Source: a virus
Taxonomy: Duplodnaviria > Caudoviricetes
Length of the DNA stretch: 54,239 nt
Strand: one strand, 5' to 3'
IMG/VR virus record: IMGVR_UViG_3300049070_000135
Coordinates: 1 to 54,239 of that record
A program made the position numbers and the translations under genes. Below the pieces are notes generated by a model. The model was not told the origin of the DNA, made no database searches, and saw nothing but the letters and a program-made list of their open reading frames with translations. Shown piece by piece: positions 14,091 to 35,297 of this stretch; the first letter of the stretch is position 1; the number at the start of each line of letters is the position of its first letter.

Positions 14091-14446
14091 GTGTAATCGA
14101 GGACAAGGCCCAGAAGGTCGCACGGAAGCTGGAACCTGTGGACCCGGGGTTTGCGTTCGACCCGGCGATGATCTTGGTGATCGCCCAGGTCGTCATGGAG
14201 GTCATCAAGGCGATCCAGGCGTGCAAGAAGCCGCCCGCGGAACTGCCCGCAATGGCCAAGCGGCCTGGCGTGCTGGGCCGCTGGCACGTCCGCCGCGCCA
14301 TTCAAAAGGAAATGAAGGATAAAGAACTTCGCGGCATGGTCGGCCCCCGGATGGTCAACGCCGTCCTGGACGTGGGGTCGGAAACGACTGAAGAAGAGGC
14401 TAAGGCGATGTTCGCCGAGGCCGACGCGGAAGGGGGTCGGCCGTGA
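14087..14446 (+). CDS. hypothetical protein with one hydrophobic helix
   Basis: ATGA overlap; FDPAMILVIAQVVMEVI. Confidence 0.7.
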   Translation: MSVIEDKAQKVARKLEPVDPGFAFDPAMILVIAQVVMEVIKAIQACKKPPAELPAMAKRPGVLGRWHVRRAIQKEMKDKELRGMVGPRMVNAVLDVGSETTEEEAKAMFAEADAEGGRP

Positions 14447-15174
14447 GGAAGGCTGCCCTGACATTACTGTTCCTGGCCGGGGGTGCCTACGCCCAGGACG
14501 CCCCGGTGGCCAAGCTGTCCGGCCCCGCGACCGCGGCGGTCGGCGAGGCGATCCTCCTGAACAGCGGCGGGTCCGTGGGCAAGGTCAAGTTCGGCGTCGC
14601 CCGCGGCCCTGTCAAACTTCCGATCGTCACCCTGAAGTCCGACGACGGGTCGATGGTCGTCGGCCTGGCCACGGCACCCGTGGCGGGTAACTACGTATTC
14701 TTCGTCGTGTCCATCGGGATCACCCCGGCCGGCGCGGACGTGCCCCTGATGGACTTTGCCTTCCACGACGTGCGGGTCGGTGGCGCGCCGCCCCCCGACC
14801 CGCCTAAGCCGCCGGACCCGCCTGTCCCGCCGCCCCCTGGTCCGGACGACAAGCCGCCGATCCCCGCGGAGGGGTTACACGTCCTGATAGTCTACGACGA
14901 CGCCCAGATGGCGTCCCTGCCGCAGTCGCAGGCGGACGTGCTGAAGTCCACGGAAATCCGGGAGTACCTCCGGGCCAAGGGCAACAACTACCGGGTCTGG
15001 AAGACCACAACCAACCCGGCCGGGGCGCCGCAGGTCTGGCAGGACGCCTTCGCCCGCCCTAGGAAGTCTACACCCTGGATCGTAGTCAGTCGTCCGGGTA
15101 AAGGAGGATATGAAGGCCCATTACCTGCTACTATTGCGGATACGATGACCCTTTTGAAAAAGTACGGGGATTGA
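14443..15174 (+). CDS. exported two-domain protein with Pro-rich linker
   Basis: signal peptide MRKAALTLLFLAGGAYA; PPPDPPKPPDPPVPPPPGP linker. Confidence 0.8.
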   Translation: MRKAALTLLFLAGGAYAQDAPVAKLSGPATAAVGEAILLNSGGSVGKVKFGVARGPVKLPIVTLKSDDGSMVVGLATAPVAGNYVFFVVSIGITPAGADVPLMDFAFHDVRVGGAPPPDPPKPPDPPVPPPPGPDDKPPIPAEGLHVLIVYDDAQMASLPQSQADVLKSTEIREYLRAKGNNYRVWKTTTNPAGAPQVWQDAFARPRKSTPWIVVSRPGKGGYEGPLPATIADTMTLLKKYGD

Positions 15175-15182
15175 TAGATAAC

Positions 15183-15216
15183 GATAGGAAGATATGCTAC
15201 TACATATCTTCCTATC
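15183..15216. promoter_or_regulatory. perfect 14-bp inverted repeat overlapping a putative HNH promoter
   Basis: GATAGGAAGATATG-ctacta-CATATCTTCCTATC; TTGATA(15171)-16 nt-TATGCT(15193). Confidence 0.6.
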
Positions 15217-15246
15217 TGAACACACCAACCTGTTTAGGAGGTTGCT

Positions 15247-15714
15247 ATGCCTGAAGACATTCTACAAAGGATTTTGCGACGTGTTAAAGTCAACGACAAG
15301 ACTGGTTGTTGGGAGTGGCAGGGCCATCGAAATTCTTGGGGGTATGGTGTGATTAAAATAGGGGGTCGTAAGGGGAAGTATCGATCCACACACCGTGTCA
15401 TGTATGCTTTGCAAATGTCTGAAATTCCTCTTGGTTTTTGTGTGTGTCATAAGTGTGACAATCCGGCGTGTGTTAAGTTGGATCATTTATTCCTTGGGAC
15501 GAACGCGGACAATGTAGCTGATCGGGAACGCAAGGGCCGTGGCGGTAATCATAAAGGAGAATTGAACGGGCGTTCTAAGTTGTCTGTCGAAAAGGCTAGT
15601 GAAATAAGGAAGAGATACATTCCAAAGAGGGTTACAAGATTACAACTGGCTGTCGAGTTTGGGGTGTCGGTGGGCACAATTAAAAAAGTGCTTGCTGGAA
15701 TGAGATGGCTTTAA
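15247..15714 (+). CDS. free-standing HNH homing endonuclease with C-terminal HTH
   Basis: CWEWQG..GYG..THR..VCHKCDNPACV..DHLFLGTNADNVAD; AT-rich relative to genome; AGGAGG RBS. Confidence 0.92.
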   Translation: MPEDILQRILRRVKVNDKTGCWEWQGHRNSWGYGVIKIGGRKGKYRSTHRVMYALQMSEIPLGFCVCHKCDNPACVKLDHLFLGTNADNVADRERKGRGGNHKGELNGRSKLSVEKASEIRKRYIPKRVTRLQLAVEFGVSVGTIKKVLAGMRWL

Positions 15715-15725
15715 CCTGGGGTTGG

Positions 15726-15788
15726 GGGCCACTGCCGGCCACCATCGCCGAAACCATGACACTCTTACGCAAATATGGAGGGAATTGA
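15726..15788 (+). pseudogene. orphaned duplicate of the 3' end of gene 14443-15174
   Basis: encodes GPLPATIAETMTLLRKYGGN* versus live GPLPATIADTMTLLKKYGD*. Confidence 0.85.
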
Positions 15789-15789
15789 C

Positions 15790-16110
15790 ATGGCCTGGAA
15801 GAAAGGACCGTTGCCGCCCGACACTTGGCACTGGGGCGGTGTCGTATTAGTCGGTGAAGAGGGTTACGGGTTTTACTTCGCAGACTTCCGCGGCGACCAC
15901 ATTCTAATAATCCCCGGCCAAAAAAGGGTCGAAGCCTCCGACGTGGCGTGGTACGACAACAACCTTGAGTTGCCGGATATTCCCAAACCGGAAGGGCCTC
16001 AGCCTCTTATCAGGAAGGGGTTCGACGCATACACCCCGGAGAACGTATTCGGCCATCCTGTCACCCCAAGGGGGTCTGAGAAAGGCCCACCGAATATCGG
16101 AGCAAGTTGA
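15790..16110 (+). CDS. hypothetical protein
   Basis: GGAGG RBS inside the relic; ATG 1 nt after the relic TGA. Confidence 0.7.
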   Translation: MAWKKGPLPPDTWHWGGVVLVGEEGYGFYFADFRGDHILIIPGQKRVEASDVAWYDNNLELPDIPKPEGPQPLIRKGFDAYTPENVFGHPVTPRGSEKGPPNIGAS

Positions 16111-30651: not shown

Positions 30652-33234
30652 ATGGCGGAAGAACAACCACTCCGGGCGTTGACCGAAAAGGCTTACCAGC
30701 GCCTCATGAAAGTGCTGTGGTGGGCCGAGGCGGCGATGCGCGAACAGGGCATCGACTTCGGCGACGTGGTCGGCGAATACGACCACGAACACGTCCCGCC
30801 CGCCAACTACGTCCGGGTCACGGGCAGCCCCGCCACCGGCGACGCCACGCACGGCATCTACCCCGGCCAATTCGTGTCCCTGGACGGCACCGGGGGCACC
30901 GGCCCCTGGTCTGACTACGACCCGACCCAGTTCTGCTACGTCCGCGACCTGACCGGCGCCCCGCTGATGCTGTCTTCCAGCGCCACGGCCGGGCCGATCT
31001 ATAAAGGCAACGTCTACGCCAACCACGGCACCGGGGCGCTGGTACTGGTCGGCGGGGGCGGCTGCACGGGCGGGACCTGCCCGACCGGCGCGACGACCGA
31101 AACCGCCTGCCAGCACACCCTGATCTATGACACCTGCAACGGCGAGGTCGTCACCCGCTCGACGCTGGTGATGAACTTCGGCGTGCCGGCGAAGTTCTGC
31201 CTCAGTCAGTCCACCGGGCCGGCCCCCCCGTGCCCCACCGGCCCGACCGGCCCCGCCGGCGCCGGCATTGTCACCAAGTCCCGCGCCGTTCCGGTCGTGG
31301 TCGGCGAATCGGTCTTGGTCGGCAAGACGACCCTCGGCAGCGTCATGGACGTGTCGGTCAACGGCGGTACGGCCTTCCAGGGCAGCAAACTCTACAACGT
31401 CGCCCACCGCTACGACGACAGCGCCCCCACGACCTGGCGGGAGGTGCGGCCGATCACGTCGTTCCTGCCCTACGGGACCGGCCACGACTTCGCCCTGGAC
31501 GTGATGCGCAACGGTTCCGAACAGTCGTACCGCATCCGGCGGGTGGCCGGCACCACCGCCGCCACGGCCAGCATCGACTTCCTGCGGGGCGGGGCCGTGA
31601 CCGACCTGTCGGGGACGGGGGCCACGGCGGTCAGCGGCTACGCCCCGAACATGGTCATCACCCAGGTCGGCGACGCCGTGGCGGTCGGCAAGACATCGAC
31701 CGACCTGCCGACGTTCCTGCTCGACGTGGGGTCGGCGGGCCTGGCCGCCACCGGCGGGGTCGCCTTCAACACGGACAGTTCCAACGTCGGCACCCGGAAC
31801 ATCCGCTGGCGGCGGTCCGGGTCGCCCCGCTTCGACGTGGTCTACGAGGCCGTCACGGACACGCTGTTCGTGACCGACGGCGTGTCCACGCTGTACAGTT
31901 GGTGGTCGCGCACGGTCGGCTTCGTCGCACCCTCCATCTACATCGACTCGAACGGTGGTGCCAATTCGGTCAAGGTCAGCCAACTCGCCAACACCGCCGG
32001 GCTGGGCGTCGTGTCAATGCAGGCCAGCGGCGCGGCCCAGGCGGTCACGCAACTGGAACTGCTACCCCAGGGGAGTTCTGTCGGCGAGACGCGGCTGCGC
32101 CTGTGCAACTTCGCCCTGCGGGACCACAGCGGGCAGTTGTCACTTTCGGTAAGCGGGGCGACCGCGTTCTTGCAGTCGGTCACTTCGGGCATCGGTACGC
32201 CCGTGACGCTGTTCCGCAACGAGATGCCGACGCTGTTCACTGCCGGGATCACCTGCACCACGGCGACGTTCAGCGGCGCGGTCGTGTTCAACAACACCGT
32301 GAACGTCAACGGGGCGTTGACCTGCACGGCCAGCGCCAGCTTCACCGCCCCCGTGGCGTTCACCAGCACGGGCACGGCCAGCTTCGCCAGCCGGGCCGCG
32401 TTCACGAACAGTTTCACCCTGGAGTCCGCGGGCGGCGGCAACCCGCTGCTGTTCCAGCAGACCAGCGCCGGCAACACGTTCAGCATTCTGACCCTCAAGC
32501 CGACGACCGGCAACGCCGTCTGCGCCGTCAACGTGCTGCCGCTGGGCACGCAGGACTCGACGCAATTGTTACTGGGCAACGGTCCCGACATCAGCAACCT
32601 CGGCTGCGTCCGCCTGTCGGTGGACGGCGCGACCGGGTACATGGAGTCCGTCACCACGGGTACGGGAACGCCGGTGGCGATATTCCAATGGGTCATCCCC
32701 ACGCGGTTCAGCGGCAACCCGGTGACGATGGACGTGCCGGTAAACTTCACCAGCACGGGCACGGCCACGTTCGCCGCCATAGTGAACCTGGAGCACAGCT
32801 TTACCCTGGTAACGCCCGGATTCGGGGGTAAGCTCAAGGTCATCAACGTCGGCGACTTTACGTCCGCCGCCTTCCGCATCCAGCCGGTCAGTGGCAACCT
32901 GCGGCAAGACCTGGACCTCCTGCCCAGCGGCACGAACGACAGTTGCCAACTACACCTCTACAACGGTTCGGATTCGGCCAACGCGGGTTCCCTGCGGCTG
33001 AAGGCGGAGGGCGCGACGGGGTGGATGGAGTCCGTCACGGGCGGGACCGGGACGGTCATGGACCGCTTCAACTGGGACATCGACATGCGGTTCCTCCAGG
33101 ACGTCGGCTTCAACGGCACCGTGCCCATCGCCAAGCCCACGGTCACGGGCAGCCGCGGCGCGAACGCGGCGTTACAAAGTTTGCTCACTGCTCTAGCTAA
33201 CTATGGCTTAGTCACGGACAGCACAACGGCTTAA
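30652..33234 (+). CDS. tail fibre / receptor-binding protein
   Basis: Gly/Thr-rich; short collagen-like GPTGPAG; three internal repeats; C-terminal KPTVTGSRGANAALQSLLTALANYGLVTDSTTA. Confidence 0.8.
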   Translation: MAEEQPLRALTEKAYQRLMKVLWWAEAAMREQGIDFGDVVGEYDHEHVPPANYVRVTGSPATGDATHGIYPGQFVSLDGTGGTGPWSDYDPTQFCYVRDLTGAPLMLSSSATAGPIYKGNVYANHGTGALVLVGGGGCTGGTCPTGATTETACQHTLIYDTCNGEVVTRSTLVMNFGVPAKFCLSQSTGPAPPCPTGPTGPAGAGIVTKSRAVPVVVGESVLVGKTTLGSVMDVSVNGGTAFQGSKLYNVAHRYDDSAPTTWREVRPITSFLPYGTGHDFALDVMRNGSEQSYRIRRVAGTTAATASIDFLRGGAVTDLSGTGATAVSGYAPNMVITQVGDAVAVGKTSTDLPTFLLDVGSAGLAATGGVAFNTDSSNVGTRNIRWRRSGSPRFDVVYEAVTDTLFVTDGVSTLYSWWSRTVGFVAPSIYIDSNGGANSVKVSQLANTAGLGVVSMQASGAAQAVTQLELLPQGSSVGETRLRLCNFALRDHSGQLSLSVSGATAFLQSVTSGIGTPVTLFRNEMPTLFTAGITCTTATFSGAVVFNNTVNVNGALTCTASASFTAPVAFTSTGTASFASRAAFTNSFTLESAGGGNPLLFQQTSAGNTFSILTLKPTTGNAVCAVNVLPLGTQDSTQLLLGNGPDISNLGCVRLSVDGATGYMESVTTGTGTPVAIFQWVIPTRFSGNPVTMDVPVNFTSTGTATFAAIVNLEHSFTLVTPGFGGKLKVINVGDFTSAAFRIQPVSGNLRQDLDLLPSGTNDSCQLHLYNGSDSANAGSLRLKAEGATGWMESVTGGTGTVMDRFNWDIDMRFLQDVGFNGTVPIAKPTVTGSRGANAALQSLLTALANYGLVTDSTTA

Positions 33235-33911
33235 ATATGCGTCCAAACTCGGCGATTTCGGATCATGCTAATCAGACTCGGGGTGACTCCGAGGCGGTCG
33301 GCCTGTTGTCTATTCGACACTCCATTGGCAGCGTCACGGCGGATTTTTCTAACCAGTACAACAGTCAGTTTGGATCGTCCCTGTCGTTCGCCGCGGGCCT
33401 TTCCGTGGCCCTTACGGGGATTGCCGTCAATCGGCGACAATTCGAGGTGCCCCCAAACTTGGCCCCTGCCGATCATTCCGACCAGGGAGCGGCTAACTCC
33501 GTATCTCTGGGCTATCTGGGTTTGGGACTCGCCTGCCGCGTAGGCGGCGTAAACGGCCCGTACAACACCTTCGGTAAGCTTCGCCTGGGAACACCGTTCC
33601 CCGCGAGTGGACCGTCCCTTCGCGGACATGTCGGCCATGTTGTCGGCGTGGGTTCCCAAGAACAGGTGATCGGGTCGGATACAATGTTTGGTGTCACAAC
33701 GATGCAACACGAACATGCCGGTGGGTATCCCCCCGTGGGTGATTATCCAAGCGAGTCTGTGGGCCGTGATGTCGTATCGGCGGCAATTTCTCTTGATGCA
33801 GTACCGCCCATACCCATTGCGAAGCCGTCTCGATTGCCAAAGCCAGCAGGTTTCGGTTTTGTGGGCGTGCGTCCAGAAACGGATTTTCACCGATTCATCA
33901 ATAGGAATCAT
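33231..33911 (-). CDS. free-standing HNH homing endonuclease with two C-terminal HTH-like repeats
   Basis: RFW..., CWLWQ..GYG..AHRLAW..VLHRCDTKHCIRPDHLFLGTHADNMAD. Confidence 0.92.
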   Translation of the reverse strand: MIPIDESVKIRFWTHAHKTETCWLWQSRRLRNGYGRYCIKRNCRRYDITAHRLAWIITHGGIPTGMFVLHRCDTKHCIRPDHLFLGTHADNMADMSAKGRSTRGERCSQAKLTEGVVRAVYAAYAAGESQTQIAQRYGVSRSLVGMIGRGQVWGHLELSPIDGNPRKGHGKARGERQGRSKLTVVLVRKIRRDAANGVSNRQQADRLGVTPSLISMIRNRRVWTHI

Positions 33912-33917
33912 GTGATA

Positions 33918-33946
33918 ATTGTAAGGTGGGTTGGGTTGGTTGTCAA
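33918..33946 (-). promoter_or_regulatory. near-consensus sigma70 promoter giving a leaderless HNH mRNA
   Basis: minus strand TTGACA-17 nt-TACAAT-6 nt-ATG(33911); no SD. Confidence 0.75.
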
Positions 33947-33953
33947 GTTAATT

Positions 33954-34025
33954 AACAATACCCTGGCCAACCTACTCACAGCCCTTGCGGACAACGGACT
34001 CATTATTAACAACACGACGGCCTGA
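33954..34025 (+). pseudogene. orphaned duplicate of the tail fibre 3' end
   Basis: encodes NNTLANLLTALADNGLIINNTTA* versus live NAALQSLLTALANYGLVTDSTTA*. Confidence 0.8.
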
Positions 34026-34028
34026 GTC

Positions 34029-35297
34029 ATGATCGTTGACCTCAGCAGCGGGTGTTGTCACTGTTGCGACCCGTCTGGTGGTACTAGTGGCGTGCCATTG
34101 GCTACAGCTTGCCCGTGCGTGAACCAACAATTGCGTTGTATGAGTGTTAGTGCCGCCTCGGGTGCGGGCACTGGTGGTGGTAATTTAACTGGAATCGAAT
34201 CTGCACTTATTCACACTTTTAGGCGATTCCCGAGCGCGACCGTTCGCGTTTTCGACGCGCGATTTGCTATCAGCTATGTTGACCCGGTAACTGGTAAGAA
34301 TCTCTGCCTAAGTGTTCATATGGTGGGTAATGTTGGTTGTGTGAGACTTCCCGGTGATCCGCCGGGTCGCGGCCACGTTCATATTACTGGGAGTTGGGTC
34401 GATTGCTGGCCACCTGTACCAATAAGTAATGACCCCACAGGCAACTGTGTCGGAGGCGGATTAGTTTGGGGCGCGCAAGGTGCCTTTCAAGGTACCATTC
34501 GCCACGATGCTTTTGAGTACATCTCCGAAGAGGTTAATATTGTCGATTGCGAGCCGGCTCGCAATCTCACACCATTCAATGTCGCTATCCGAATTCGGGA
34601 GAAGTCTAACTGTGACGACTCCGGCCCAGGACTTGAACCACCTCAGTTGTTTGCCATTAGTGACCGCCCGTTTACTATGCAATTCACGCCAACTCTCAAC
34701 GAAGACTGCGCACCCCCTCTAGACGACCCGAATTATCCTTGGTTACTTATGGATGAGAACGACAACGCAATTGGTCCGCCTAGTACGGACGGAGGTAATA
34801 TTGGCGGTATTATTAATAACATTAATTCGACCAACCCGTGTTGTATCGGTGGATTTCTAGACGGCGATGACGTTCCTGGCCCAGACCCCGGCCCCCCTGT
34901 CGTTCCCCCCGACCGCGTACTCACTCCTTGCTGCCCGGTCGAAAGCGCGACGGTTAGCAAGACTCTGACTGTGGTCGCCGACACGATGGGCGTGTGCCCG
35001 GCACTGGAGTTCTCCATCGGGATCGCCTACAGTAATGCCCTGCGGGCCTGGGTGGGCACGGCAATCAGCGGTGGCAATTTCATCACCGTCATCTTCTGGT
35101 GCGAACCCGGAGGGACCTGGTTCATGAACGTCTACTGCGCGGGCATCCTGATCTGGGCGGCGTCGGGCGCGATGTTCACCGGCAACAGTTGCCCCGTGGA
35201 CATGACGGCGGGTCCGAACACTTCGGACACGTCACCCTGCTGCGCCAGCGGCGTCCCCCTCATCATCCGGGTCTTCGACCCGACCATCGAGCCATGA
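34029..35297 (+). CDS. Cys-rich tail-associated protein
   Basis: GCCHCC N-terminus, many Cys; 5' part has atypical AT3-rich codons. Confidence 0.7.
   Translation: MIVDLSSGCCHCCDPSGGTSGVPLATACPCVNQQLRCMSVSAASGAGTGGGNLTGIESALIHTFRRFPSATVRVFDARFAISYVDPVTGKNLCLSVHMVGNVGCVRLPGDPPGRGHVHITGSWVDCWPPVPISNDPTGNCVGGGLVWGAQGAFQGTIRHDAFEYISEEVNIVDCEPARNLTPFNVAIRIREKSNCDDSGPGLEPPQLFAISDRPFTMQFTPTLNEDCAPPLDDPNYPWLLMDENDNAIGPPSTDGGNIGGIINNINSTNPCCIGGFLDGDDVPGPDPGPPVVPPDRVLTPCCPVESATVSKTLTVVADTMGVCPALEFSIGIAYSNALRAWVGTAISGGNFITVIFWCEPGGTWFMNVYCAGILIWAASGAMFTGNSCPVDMTAGPNTSDTSPCCASGVPLIIRVFDPTIEP

Follow-up and report, generated by a model that had tools for sequence, protein, structure and literature searches.

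A phage HNH nuclease gene between two copies of a tail-fibre gene end: a candidate gene-end-replacing homing element

The uncultured soil phage recorded as IMGVR_UViG_3300049070_000135 (Duplodnaviria; Caudoviricetes) carries, within its tail module, an HNH endonuclease gene that lies between two copies of the 3' end of a tail-fibre gene. The window analysed in this study is the whole virus record, a linear sequence of 54,239 bases with approximately 65% G+C, estimated to be 70% complete. The first copy (33172-33234) is the working end of the fibre gene and is foreign in its codon composition. It is followed by the nuclease gene on the minus strand (33231-33911) and by a second, displaced copy of the fibre end (33954-34025), an order that places the nuclease between the two ends. 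We propose that this cassette is a free-standing HNH homing-type element which supplies its target gene with a new 3' end, the former one being displaced downstream; we assign this reading a probability of roughly 0.7. As a unit, the element would comprise a foreign copy of the last 20 fibre codons, the antisense nuclease gene, the promoter of the nuclease and the displaced, non-functional older end.

The fibre gene and its two ends

The presumed target gene of the cassette is a tail-fibre gene of 860 amino acids (aa) on the plus strand (30652-33234), taken from the list of open reading frames (ORFs) and ending in GSRGANAALQSLLTALANYGLVTDSTTA and a stop codon. Up to position 33171 the G+C fraction at third codon positions (GC3) of this gene is 770/840 (0.92), and the last 60 codons before 33172 all end in G or C (60/60). 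From 33172 to 33231 GC3 is 9/20 (binomial P ~1e-7). The abrupt switch of codons at about 33172, to which a sequence-only reading of this DNA had drawn attention, is thus sharp. The break falls inside a conserved C-terminal module of the fibre. The first part of the module (33082-33171, plus strand, ending in VGFNGTVPIAKPTVTGSRGANAA) is written in native GC-rich codons, with GC3 of 20/20 per 20-codon window from 32992 to 33171. The replacement gene end (33172-33234, plus strand) consists of 20 codons (LQSLLTALANYGLVTDSTTA) and the stop, is written in foreign, AT-richer codons and is the functional end of the fibre. It is canonical, agreeing with the consensus of 50 natural ends at 20 of 22 positions and holding no residue unseen among them. 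The break in composition and the retained family consensus together characterise a chimeric gene with a foreign but working 3' end. The same fibre allele, with one residue different, was found on 8 contigs in a cluster look-up, none of which had an alternative end.

The displaced fibre end (33954-34025, plus strand) reads NNTLANLLTALADNGLIINNTTA and a stop, with 23 codons before the stop and no fibre body upstream. The presence of a downstream copy at this place had been recognised from the sequence and stands; its reading had to be corrected to the peptide given here, in which TLAN... begins at 33960. The 3 nt that had been counted between the copy and the next ATG are found as well (tga at 34023-34025, gtc, ATG at 34029). 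Homology to the fibre end begins at 33954, which corresponds to 33163 in the fibre gene, and 13 of 23 residues are identical. At the matched position in the fibre, the copy begins within 3 codons of the GC3 break. The crossover zone spans 33163-33171, opening opposite the start of this homology. Anchored at the stop codons, 12 of 20 residues are identical, compared to a maximum of 10, reached once, among 2000 mismatched flank pairs. The Smith-Waterman score of 60 exceeds the maximum of 53 among 600 mismatched pairs and falls within the null (maximum 70) when the flanks are longer and the scan is looser. A tblastn search revealed only two copies of the fibre-end motif within the window (E 1.5e-4 to 3.6e-4). 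As DNA, the two copies agree at only 36 of 66 bases and are therefore homologous ends of different descent, not the product of a recent duplication in place. The displaced copy matches the family consensus at 15 of 22 positions, at the low edge of the natural ends (from 13, median 18), and three of its residues are absent from the 50 natural ends. Judged by its sequence, it may not be this genome's own former end; by analogy with the WHO elements of yeasts, described below, it may be old and travel with the element. In natural genes bearing the motif, the next same-strand ORF begins -20 to +30 nt from the stop in 51 of 78.

Tandem genes with the module do exist, being present in 4 (L109, L130, L133 and L191) of the 162 further module-bearing loci that we collected (loci L083-L244; proteins P0002-P0158). 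The displaced copy might accordingly be what is left of a second fibre gene in tandem, deleted except for its last 23 codons, with the HNH gene having landed in the gap. We regard this as distinctly improbable. It leaves to coincidence that the copy starts so close to the compositional break of the first gene, and the foreign composition of the working end of that gene goes unexplained. Moreover, the sequence directly upstream of the copy is the putative nuclease promoter and not fibre sequence, and a relic-only copy is seen at none of the 4 tandem loci.

Contigs from other runs span both cassette junctions with zero differences (X4 record 28, covering 33131-34059; X14 records 12 and 14; X16 record 20), which argues that the cassette did not arise in assembly. 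The surrounding 4-kb stretch is present in 20 soil-metagenome runs from 18 studies, 16 of the 20 with at least half of the sampled words, and three of the runs may represent the source sample; cover holes in runs X11, X14 and X16 carry no information. The gene order in this part of the tail module is a 996-aa tape-measure-like gene, a 337-aa gene, the fibre gene, the cassette and a 422-aa gene.

The fibre gene matched no Pfam, PHROG or NCBIfam family. Three full-length relatives (P0002-P0004) are 40-44% identical. No whole-gene relatives were found in 50,697 phage records or in viral_contigs, scans with a 4-protein fibre alignment returned other module-bearing loci only, and among short protein fragments none matched the fibre more closely than 42% identity.

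An intact antisense nuclease gene

The HNH (His-Me finger) endonuclease gene (33231-33911, minus strand) encodes 226 aa, with an N-terminal nuclease domain and two helix-turn-helix (HTH) modules, as assigned by Pfam, PHROG and a structure model. Its stop overlaps that of the fibre gene in TTAA at 33231-33234, as had been remarked before: the HNH stop reads tta on the plus strand (33231-33233) and the fibre stop taa (33232-33234). Pfam detects HNH_3 at residues 50-93 (2.7e-13; 49.8 bits compared to a cut-off of 24.8), HTH_23 at residues 119-143 (6.6e-7) and HTH_38 at residues 179-215 (1.2e-6). The protein scores just below the cut-off of a zinc-binding His-Me model and matches PHROG 59, 'HNH endonuclease', at 3.2e-35. 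In an alignment of 38 proteins, 37 of them relatives from viral contigs, it retains all seven invariant columns (C22, H70, C72, C77, H82, N91 and D94).

The predicted structure has a predicted local distance difference test score (pLDDT) of 87.9. Its top match in Foldseek is I-HmuI, with an E value of only 0.084. In VIA-align, I-HmuI reaches Z 7.8 (root mean square deviation 3.0, 90 aligned residues) and I-PpoI Z 7.7, the next unrelated rows following at 5.8; according to the tool's own note, Z below 8 is suggestive and alone not decisive. The model contains two three-helix units which match resolvase/Fis-type HTH domains at Z 5-5.7. A sequence search of the PDB with the nuclease core gave no match. 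The nuclease gene is intact, and its predicted product combines an I-HmuI-like HNH domain with separate DNA-binding modules.

A promoter-like site, TTGACA-17-TACAAT, agrees with the consensus at 11 of 12 positions and lies directly upstream of the nuclease ATG at 33911 (33918-33946, minus strand). Promoter-like sites number 3 in the region, compared to 0.6 expected from shuffles. Since only 6 nt separate the -10 hexamer from the ATG, the nuclease mRNA would be leaderless or nearly so. We infer that the nuclease of the cassette is expressed from its own promoter, with a leaderless message likely.

Two other kinds of mobile element were considered and rejected. A nuclease borne by an intron or intein does not fit the region: there are no Rfam matches at E up to 1 on either strand between 32600 and 34500, the nuclease gene is antisense and the fibre frame closes at its own stop. 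A transposon or insertion sequence is not indicated either, as terminal direct or inverted repeats are absent and the duplicated ends are no more alike than stated above (36/66). The repeats near the cassette are short and scattered, 10-26 nt in length, and none lies at the borders.

On the plus strand, codon-aligned antisense to the HNH gene, a 262-codon ORF runs from 33237 to 34025. Its ATG lies 2 nt past the fibre stop, and its own stop precedes the following ATG by 3 nt; its product matches no family. The HNH gene is free of TTA, CTA and TCA codons. Interpretation of this frame as a 'bridge ORF' was rejected, for open antisense frames are common in the HNH family, being present in 15 of 72 related genes and in 5 of 16 at similar GC3. 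The chance of a stop-free frame across 33237-34025 is 0.01-0.30, depending on the assumed codon usage. Given this base rate, the frame is probably a shadow ORF. It bears on the possibility that the downstream copy is functional, either as exon 2 of a spliced fibre mRNA or as the end of this frame in a bridging translation. The unbroken frame between the fibre stop and the next gene is what speaks for such a role. We consider it scarcely credible, as Rfam detects no intron, the nuclease is encoded on the opposite strand, the fibre already possesses a canonical end and stop, and the frame is both of a kind common in the family and without a family match for its product.

Recurrence of the layout and the borders of the cassette

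The window contains only two HNH genes, and the other one belongs to a sister cassette, cassette 1 (15058-15788, plus strand). Its host gene (14443-15174) ends in GPLPATIADTMTLLKKYGD and a stop, with the replaced end at 15058-15174. The HNH gene follows at 15247-15714, and the displaced end at 15726-15788 reads GPLPATIAETMTLLRKYGGN and a stop; the next ATG is at 15790. GC3 is 0.90 in the host gene, 0.42 in the replaced end and 0.43 in the HNH gene. The flank duplication scores 86 (Smith-Waterman; mismatched-pair maximum 53). The sequence-only reading had described the fibre cassette as built like cassette 1, with another target gene and the nuclease in the opposite orientation, and this anatomy is present at both. 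It had further taken the two for independent insertions, which agrees with our data: the two nucleases are merely 33-35% identical, and the cassettes are therefore separate elements. Upstream of the HNH gene of cassette 1 (15175-15246), a perfect 14-nt inverted repeat (gataggaagatatg ... catatcttcctatc) is followed by an AGGAGG ribosome-binding site; the repeat is possibly a terminator or a regulatory hairpin between host gene and nuclease gene.

Outside the window, we inspected 80 viral-contig loci with related HNH genes (31-53% identity). The three-part layout is found in 3 of the 80 (L033, L027 and L034), where helicase-like genes are affected at their 3' end. In L033 the duplication spans 55 residues and scores 141; G+C follows the textbook pattern, at 0.70 for the host gene, 0.57 for the replaced end, 0.55-0.66 for the nuclease gene and 0.73-0.75 for the displaced end. 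L027 shows the same layout, and L034 is its close sister. With cassette 1 and the fibre cassette included, the layout is seen five times in this HNH family, at four target sites. The HNH ORF of L034 (2441-2944) continues in frame, at its C-terminus, into the displaced helicase end (NKRLIERALGVAQ); because the remnant lies within the ORF, such fusions escape scans limited to sequence outside the nuclease ORF. One further locus with a high score, L065 (118), was rejected, the similar peptides being N-terminal repeats of neighbouring minus-strand genes. L072/L073 (96) and L036 (61) were unclear and left uncounted, and L007, L029, L032 and L018 turned out to be arginine/proline-rich chance matches. 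The idea that end-replacing HNH proteins form a clade was not borne out: on a tree of 72 proteins, four such HNHs need 4 changes, compared to a shuffled mean of 3.9. This tree is a quick one with 42 of 69 branches unresolved, built after 8 duplicate proteins had been dropped.

The right border of the cassette abuts a gene that is itself a mosaic. This gene (34029-35297, plus strand) encodes 422 aa, with a low-GC N-terminal part of ~260 aa and a C-terminal part of ~160 aa that is common to relatives; GC3 is 0.46 in codons 1-274 and 0.80 in codons 275-422. An exhaustive HMMER search with the 422-aa protein (1.84 billion representatives) gave 9 hits, of which 7 are restricted to residues ~250-420. 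The other two are the same protein called from a later start (P0159) and a match to a short stretch, residues 66-97 (P0162); the N-terminal ~260 aa are otherwise without relatives. One relative of the C-terminal ~160 aa, P0160, is 57% identical. The 422-aa protein is cysteine-rich, and cluster members on other contigs were called from later starts (108-385 aa). No relatives of this gene were detected in viral_contigs, a homologue was present at none of the 162 motif-bearing loci, and an exact search with 40 bases just past the cassette gave zero matches in viral_contigs.

These properties of the right flank invite a reading in terms of general mosaic recombination. A low-GC block (33172 to ~34850) from another phage would have been joined at the fibre module, with the HNH gene as a passenger, perhaps inactive, and the end would have been duplicated incidentally, when two genes with the module were joined unequally or illegitimately. 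GC3 is low without a break from 33172 to ~34870, the next gene is mosaic at the same point, and the module, present on many unrelated fibres, could serve as a recombination linker; spread of the HNH gene into the fibre module is moreover seen nowhere else. We nevertheless judge this reading unlikely. The three-part layout recurs near related HNH genes at other targets (cassette 1, L033, L027 and L034), which ties the duplication to the nuclease. In addition, one joint in run X4 skips exactly 33174-34025 and spares the low-GC start of the next gene, and a 21.9-kb contig of double depth in the same run begins at 34030 with zero differences.

Run X4 belongs to a study other than that of the likely source and seems to contain two forms of the region. 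Two contigs are identical to the window, 32367-33146 at depth 9.34 and 33131-34059 at depth 8.35, and the depth of a diverged fibre contig is 9.72. A single contig (depth 7.7) links 33173 with 34026 and has a short side of 34 letters that reaches 34059; this joint was found at 85% likeness as the threshold and is defined by its two sides only. The flanking contigs have depths of 18.8 (to 32396) and 18.1 (from 34030). As observed in the contigs, the distal fibre of a second strain (32367-33173) is ~85-90% alike with insertions and deletions of 41-285 nt, and both sides are shared; the distal fibre is thus a swapped segment adjoining the nuclease cassette. The data of X4 hint at occupied and unoccupied alleles of about equal abundance which share the next gene and differ over distal fibre and cassette. 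If this holds, the unoccupied end is less than 85% like either copy, so that the displaced end would be of some age and would move along with the element. Differences between the two forms extend over 32367-34029, the trace to be expected from co-conversion.

Several observations weigh against the element that we propose. The evidence for an HNH-free allele is the single X4 joint with its 34-letter side at the 85% threshold; no alignment of the putative empty allele to the displaced end reached 85%, and the low-GC start of the next gene is apparently common to both X4 forms. No HNH-free relative was found as sequence in viral_contigs or among short protein fragments. The low-GC3 tract passes the end of the cassette and continues for ~800 nt into the next gene, so composition alone fails to set the right border. 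GC3 of the displaced copy (16/23) lies between the value of the host and that of the low-GC block. An HNH gene with a remnant is present at 0 of the 162 other module-bearing loci, and the fibre module stands beside a related HNH gene in 0 of the 80 nearest HNH relatives, and spread of this HNH into the fibre module is therefore not seen elsewhere. Finally, the new end is not unusually respelled: 44 of its 66 bases equal the DNA consensus, and natural ends range from 34 to 58.

The presumed target module and comparison with known systems

The module, which makes up the C-terminal ~45 residues of the fibre (VGFNGTxPIAKPTVTGSRGGNAALASLLTALANYGLITDSTTA), also ends 87 other proteins of 476-1076 aa, obtained in one search. 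Most of these are 70-88% identical over the ~45-aa stretch alone; their bodies are otherwise diverse and fibre- or tailspike-like, some with pectate-lyase-type domains, and likeness to the rest of the fibre is confined to P0002-P0004. None of the models in Pfam, PHROG or NCBIfam covers the module. Fibres are usually built the other way round, without a conserved C-terminus attached to variable bodies, and the module may be an attachment or assembly tag. In one module-bearing locus (L156, 3001-3582) a domain of ~150 aa is inserted in frame within the module, between ...KPTITGARG and SSLTAALAAYGLVTDSTSA. This insertion point equals the compositional break of the window, and the point therefore seems to be a seam between sub-parts of the module. 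In L191 (3263-3601) a 112-aa 'mini-fibre', in which a typical fibre N-terminus is joined almost directly to the C-terminal module, follows at a distance of 2 nt a 735-aa fibre gene that bears the module as well.

Homing endonucleases usually target conserved sequence. For the element that we propose, we infer a course of events in which the nuclease would recognise, and nick or cut, the DNA encoding the conserved fibre module in element-free genomes. The break would then be repaired from an element-bearing genome, with the left crossover within the conserved module (33163-33171) and the right crossover within the old end, shortly past it or inside the next gene. Repair would thereby give the recipient a chimeric yet intact fibre gene, whose new end would no longer match the target and would presumably resist cleavage, a point for which the low DNA identity of the two copies (36/66) is indirect evidence, and the element would be able to move at the present day.

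On the usual view, homing endonuclease genes of the free-standing kind occupy only intergenic gaps unless hidden in an intron or intein. A spare gene end is a third route into coding sequence, established in detail for yeast and also observed in mitochondria of fungi. The present case would be an HNH version of it in a phage, antisense with its own promoter and aimed at a pan-phage fibre module. Two cassettes in one phage, in two genes and both orientations, together with the further cases around related HNH genes, suggest that the gene-end-replacing strategy is common in phages. It would be easily overlooked, because annotation shows merely a short orphan ORF or nothing at all. The presumed target in our case is a short conserved module on very diverse fibres, adjoining host-range genes, and nuclease-driven exchange could shuffle host-range determinants. 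A wider claim, which we hold to be doubtful, is that phages harbour a WHO-like class of homing elements in which HNH genes enter coding sequence by means of a substitute gene end, with neither intron nor intein. The landing pad here would be the fibre module of hundreds of unrelated soil-phage fibres, so that the element could jump between unrelated phages, drive swaps of the distal fibre and of adjacent receptor-binding genes by co-conversion and affect host range.

Among known systems, the closest include the free-standing HNH homing endonucleases of phages, such as T4 MobE and the I-HmuI-like genes of lactococcal Skunavirus phages (PMC12724721, PMC2790892). As portrayed in the portions of these papers drawn on here, they share with the fibre cassette an HNH_3-type nuclease with a variable DNA-binding tail, and they are sporadic, intergenic and situated near borders of exchanged DNA. 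They differ in lying between intact genes and cutting a neighbouring gene, with no replacement or displaced target end described in those portions. We found no account of gene-end replacement by phage nucleases in the open-access literature consulted, which included parts of PMC10448857 and PMC12724721, and a 2026 preprint on WHO elements mentions bacteriophages once, in general terms only.

A likeness in anatomy is offered by the mORF 'gene hybrids' of fungal mitochondria, reported for atp6, atp9, cox2 and nad3 of Glomus and atp6 of Allomyces macrogynus (Beaudet et al. 2013, PMC3630166). According to that report, the carboxy-terminus is duplicated, and a foreign in-phase C-terminus is followed by an endonuclease ORF and then by the native C*-terminus. 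The inserted copy diverges more in DNA than in protein, which we count as a further likeness. In contrast to the phage cassette, the enzymes are of the LAGLIDADG or GIY-YIG type, the ORF frequently shares both reading frame and transcript with the host gene, and the genome is that of an organelle. The native end of the mitochondrial hybrids is near-identical to the end found in sister species, a match not established for the displaced fibre end.

A close parallel is provided by the WHO elements at FBA1, the aldolase gene, of Torulaspora and Lachancea yeasts (Coughlan et al. 2020, PMC7282813). In the mechanism proposed there, an allele sensitive to the nuclease is cut, and its repair brings in the nuclease gene along with a 3' end that resists cutting, so that the former end comes to lie downstream. 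As in the fibre cassette, the endonuclease gene adjoins a host gene with a replaced 3' end, the former end is a downstream fragment whose openness is dispensable, and the host gene is chimeric, with a recipient 5' part and a donor 3' part, for which neither splicing nor protein splicing is necessary. The differences concern the enzyme, which is intein-derived with a zinc finger in WHO elements and of the HNH_3 type with HTH modules here; the host, a nuclear eukaryotic genome with meiotic homing compared to a phage; and the replaced part, ~415 bp compared to 63 bp. WHO elements moreover form clusters, whereas the fibre cassette is a single antisense unit with its own promoter, and WHO cleavage has been shown experimentally, whereas the present element is known from sequence. 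By analogy, the mechanism proposed for WHO elements, and likewise that of the mORF 'gene hybrids' of Glomus and Allomyces, would fit the fibre cassette point for point, save for the enzyme family and the host.

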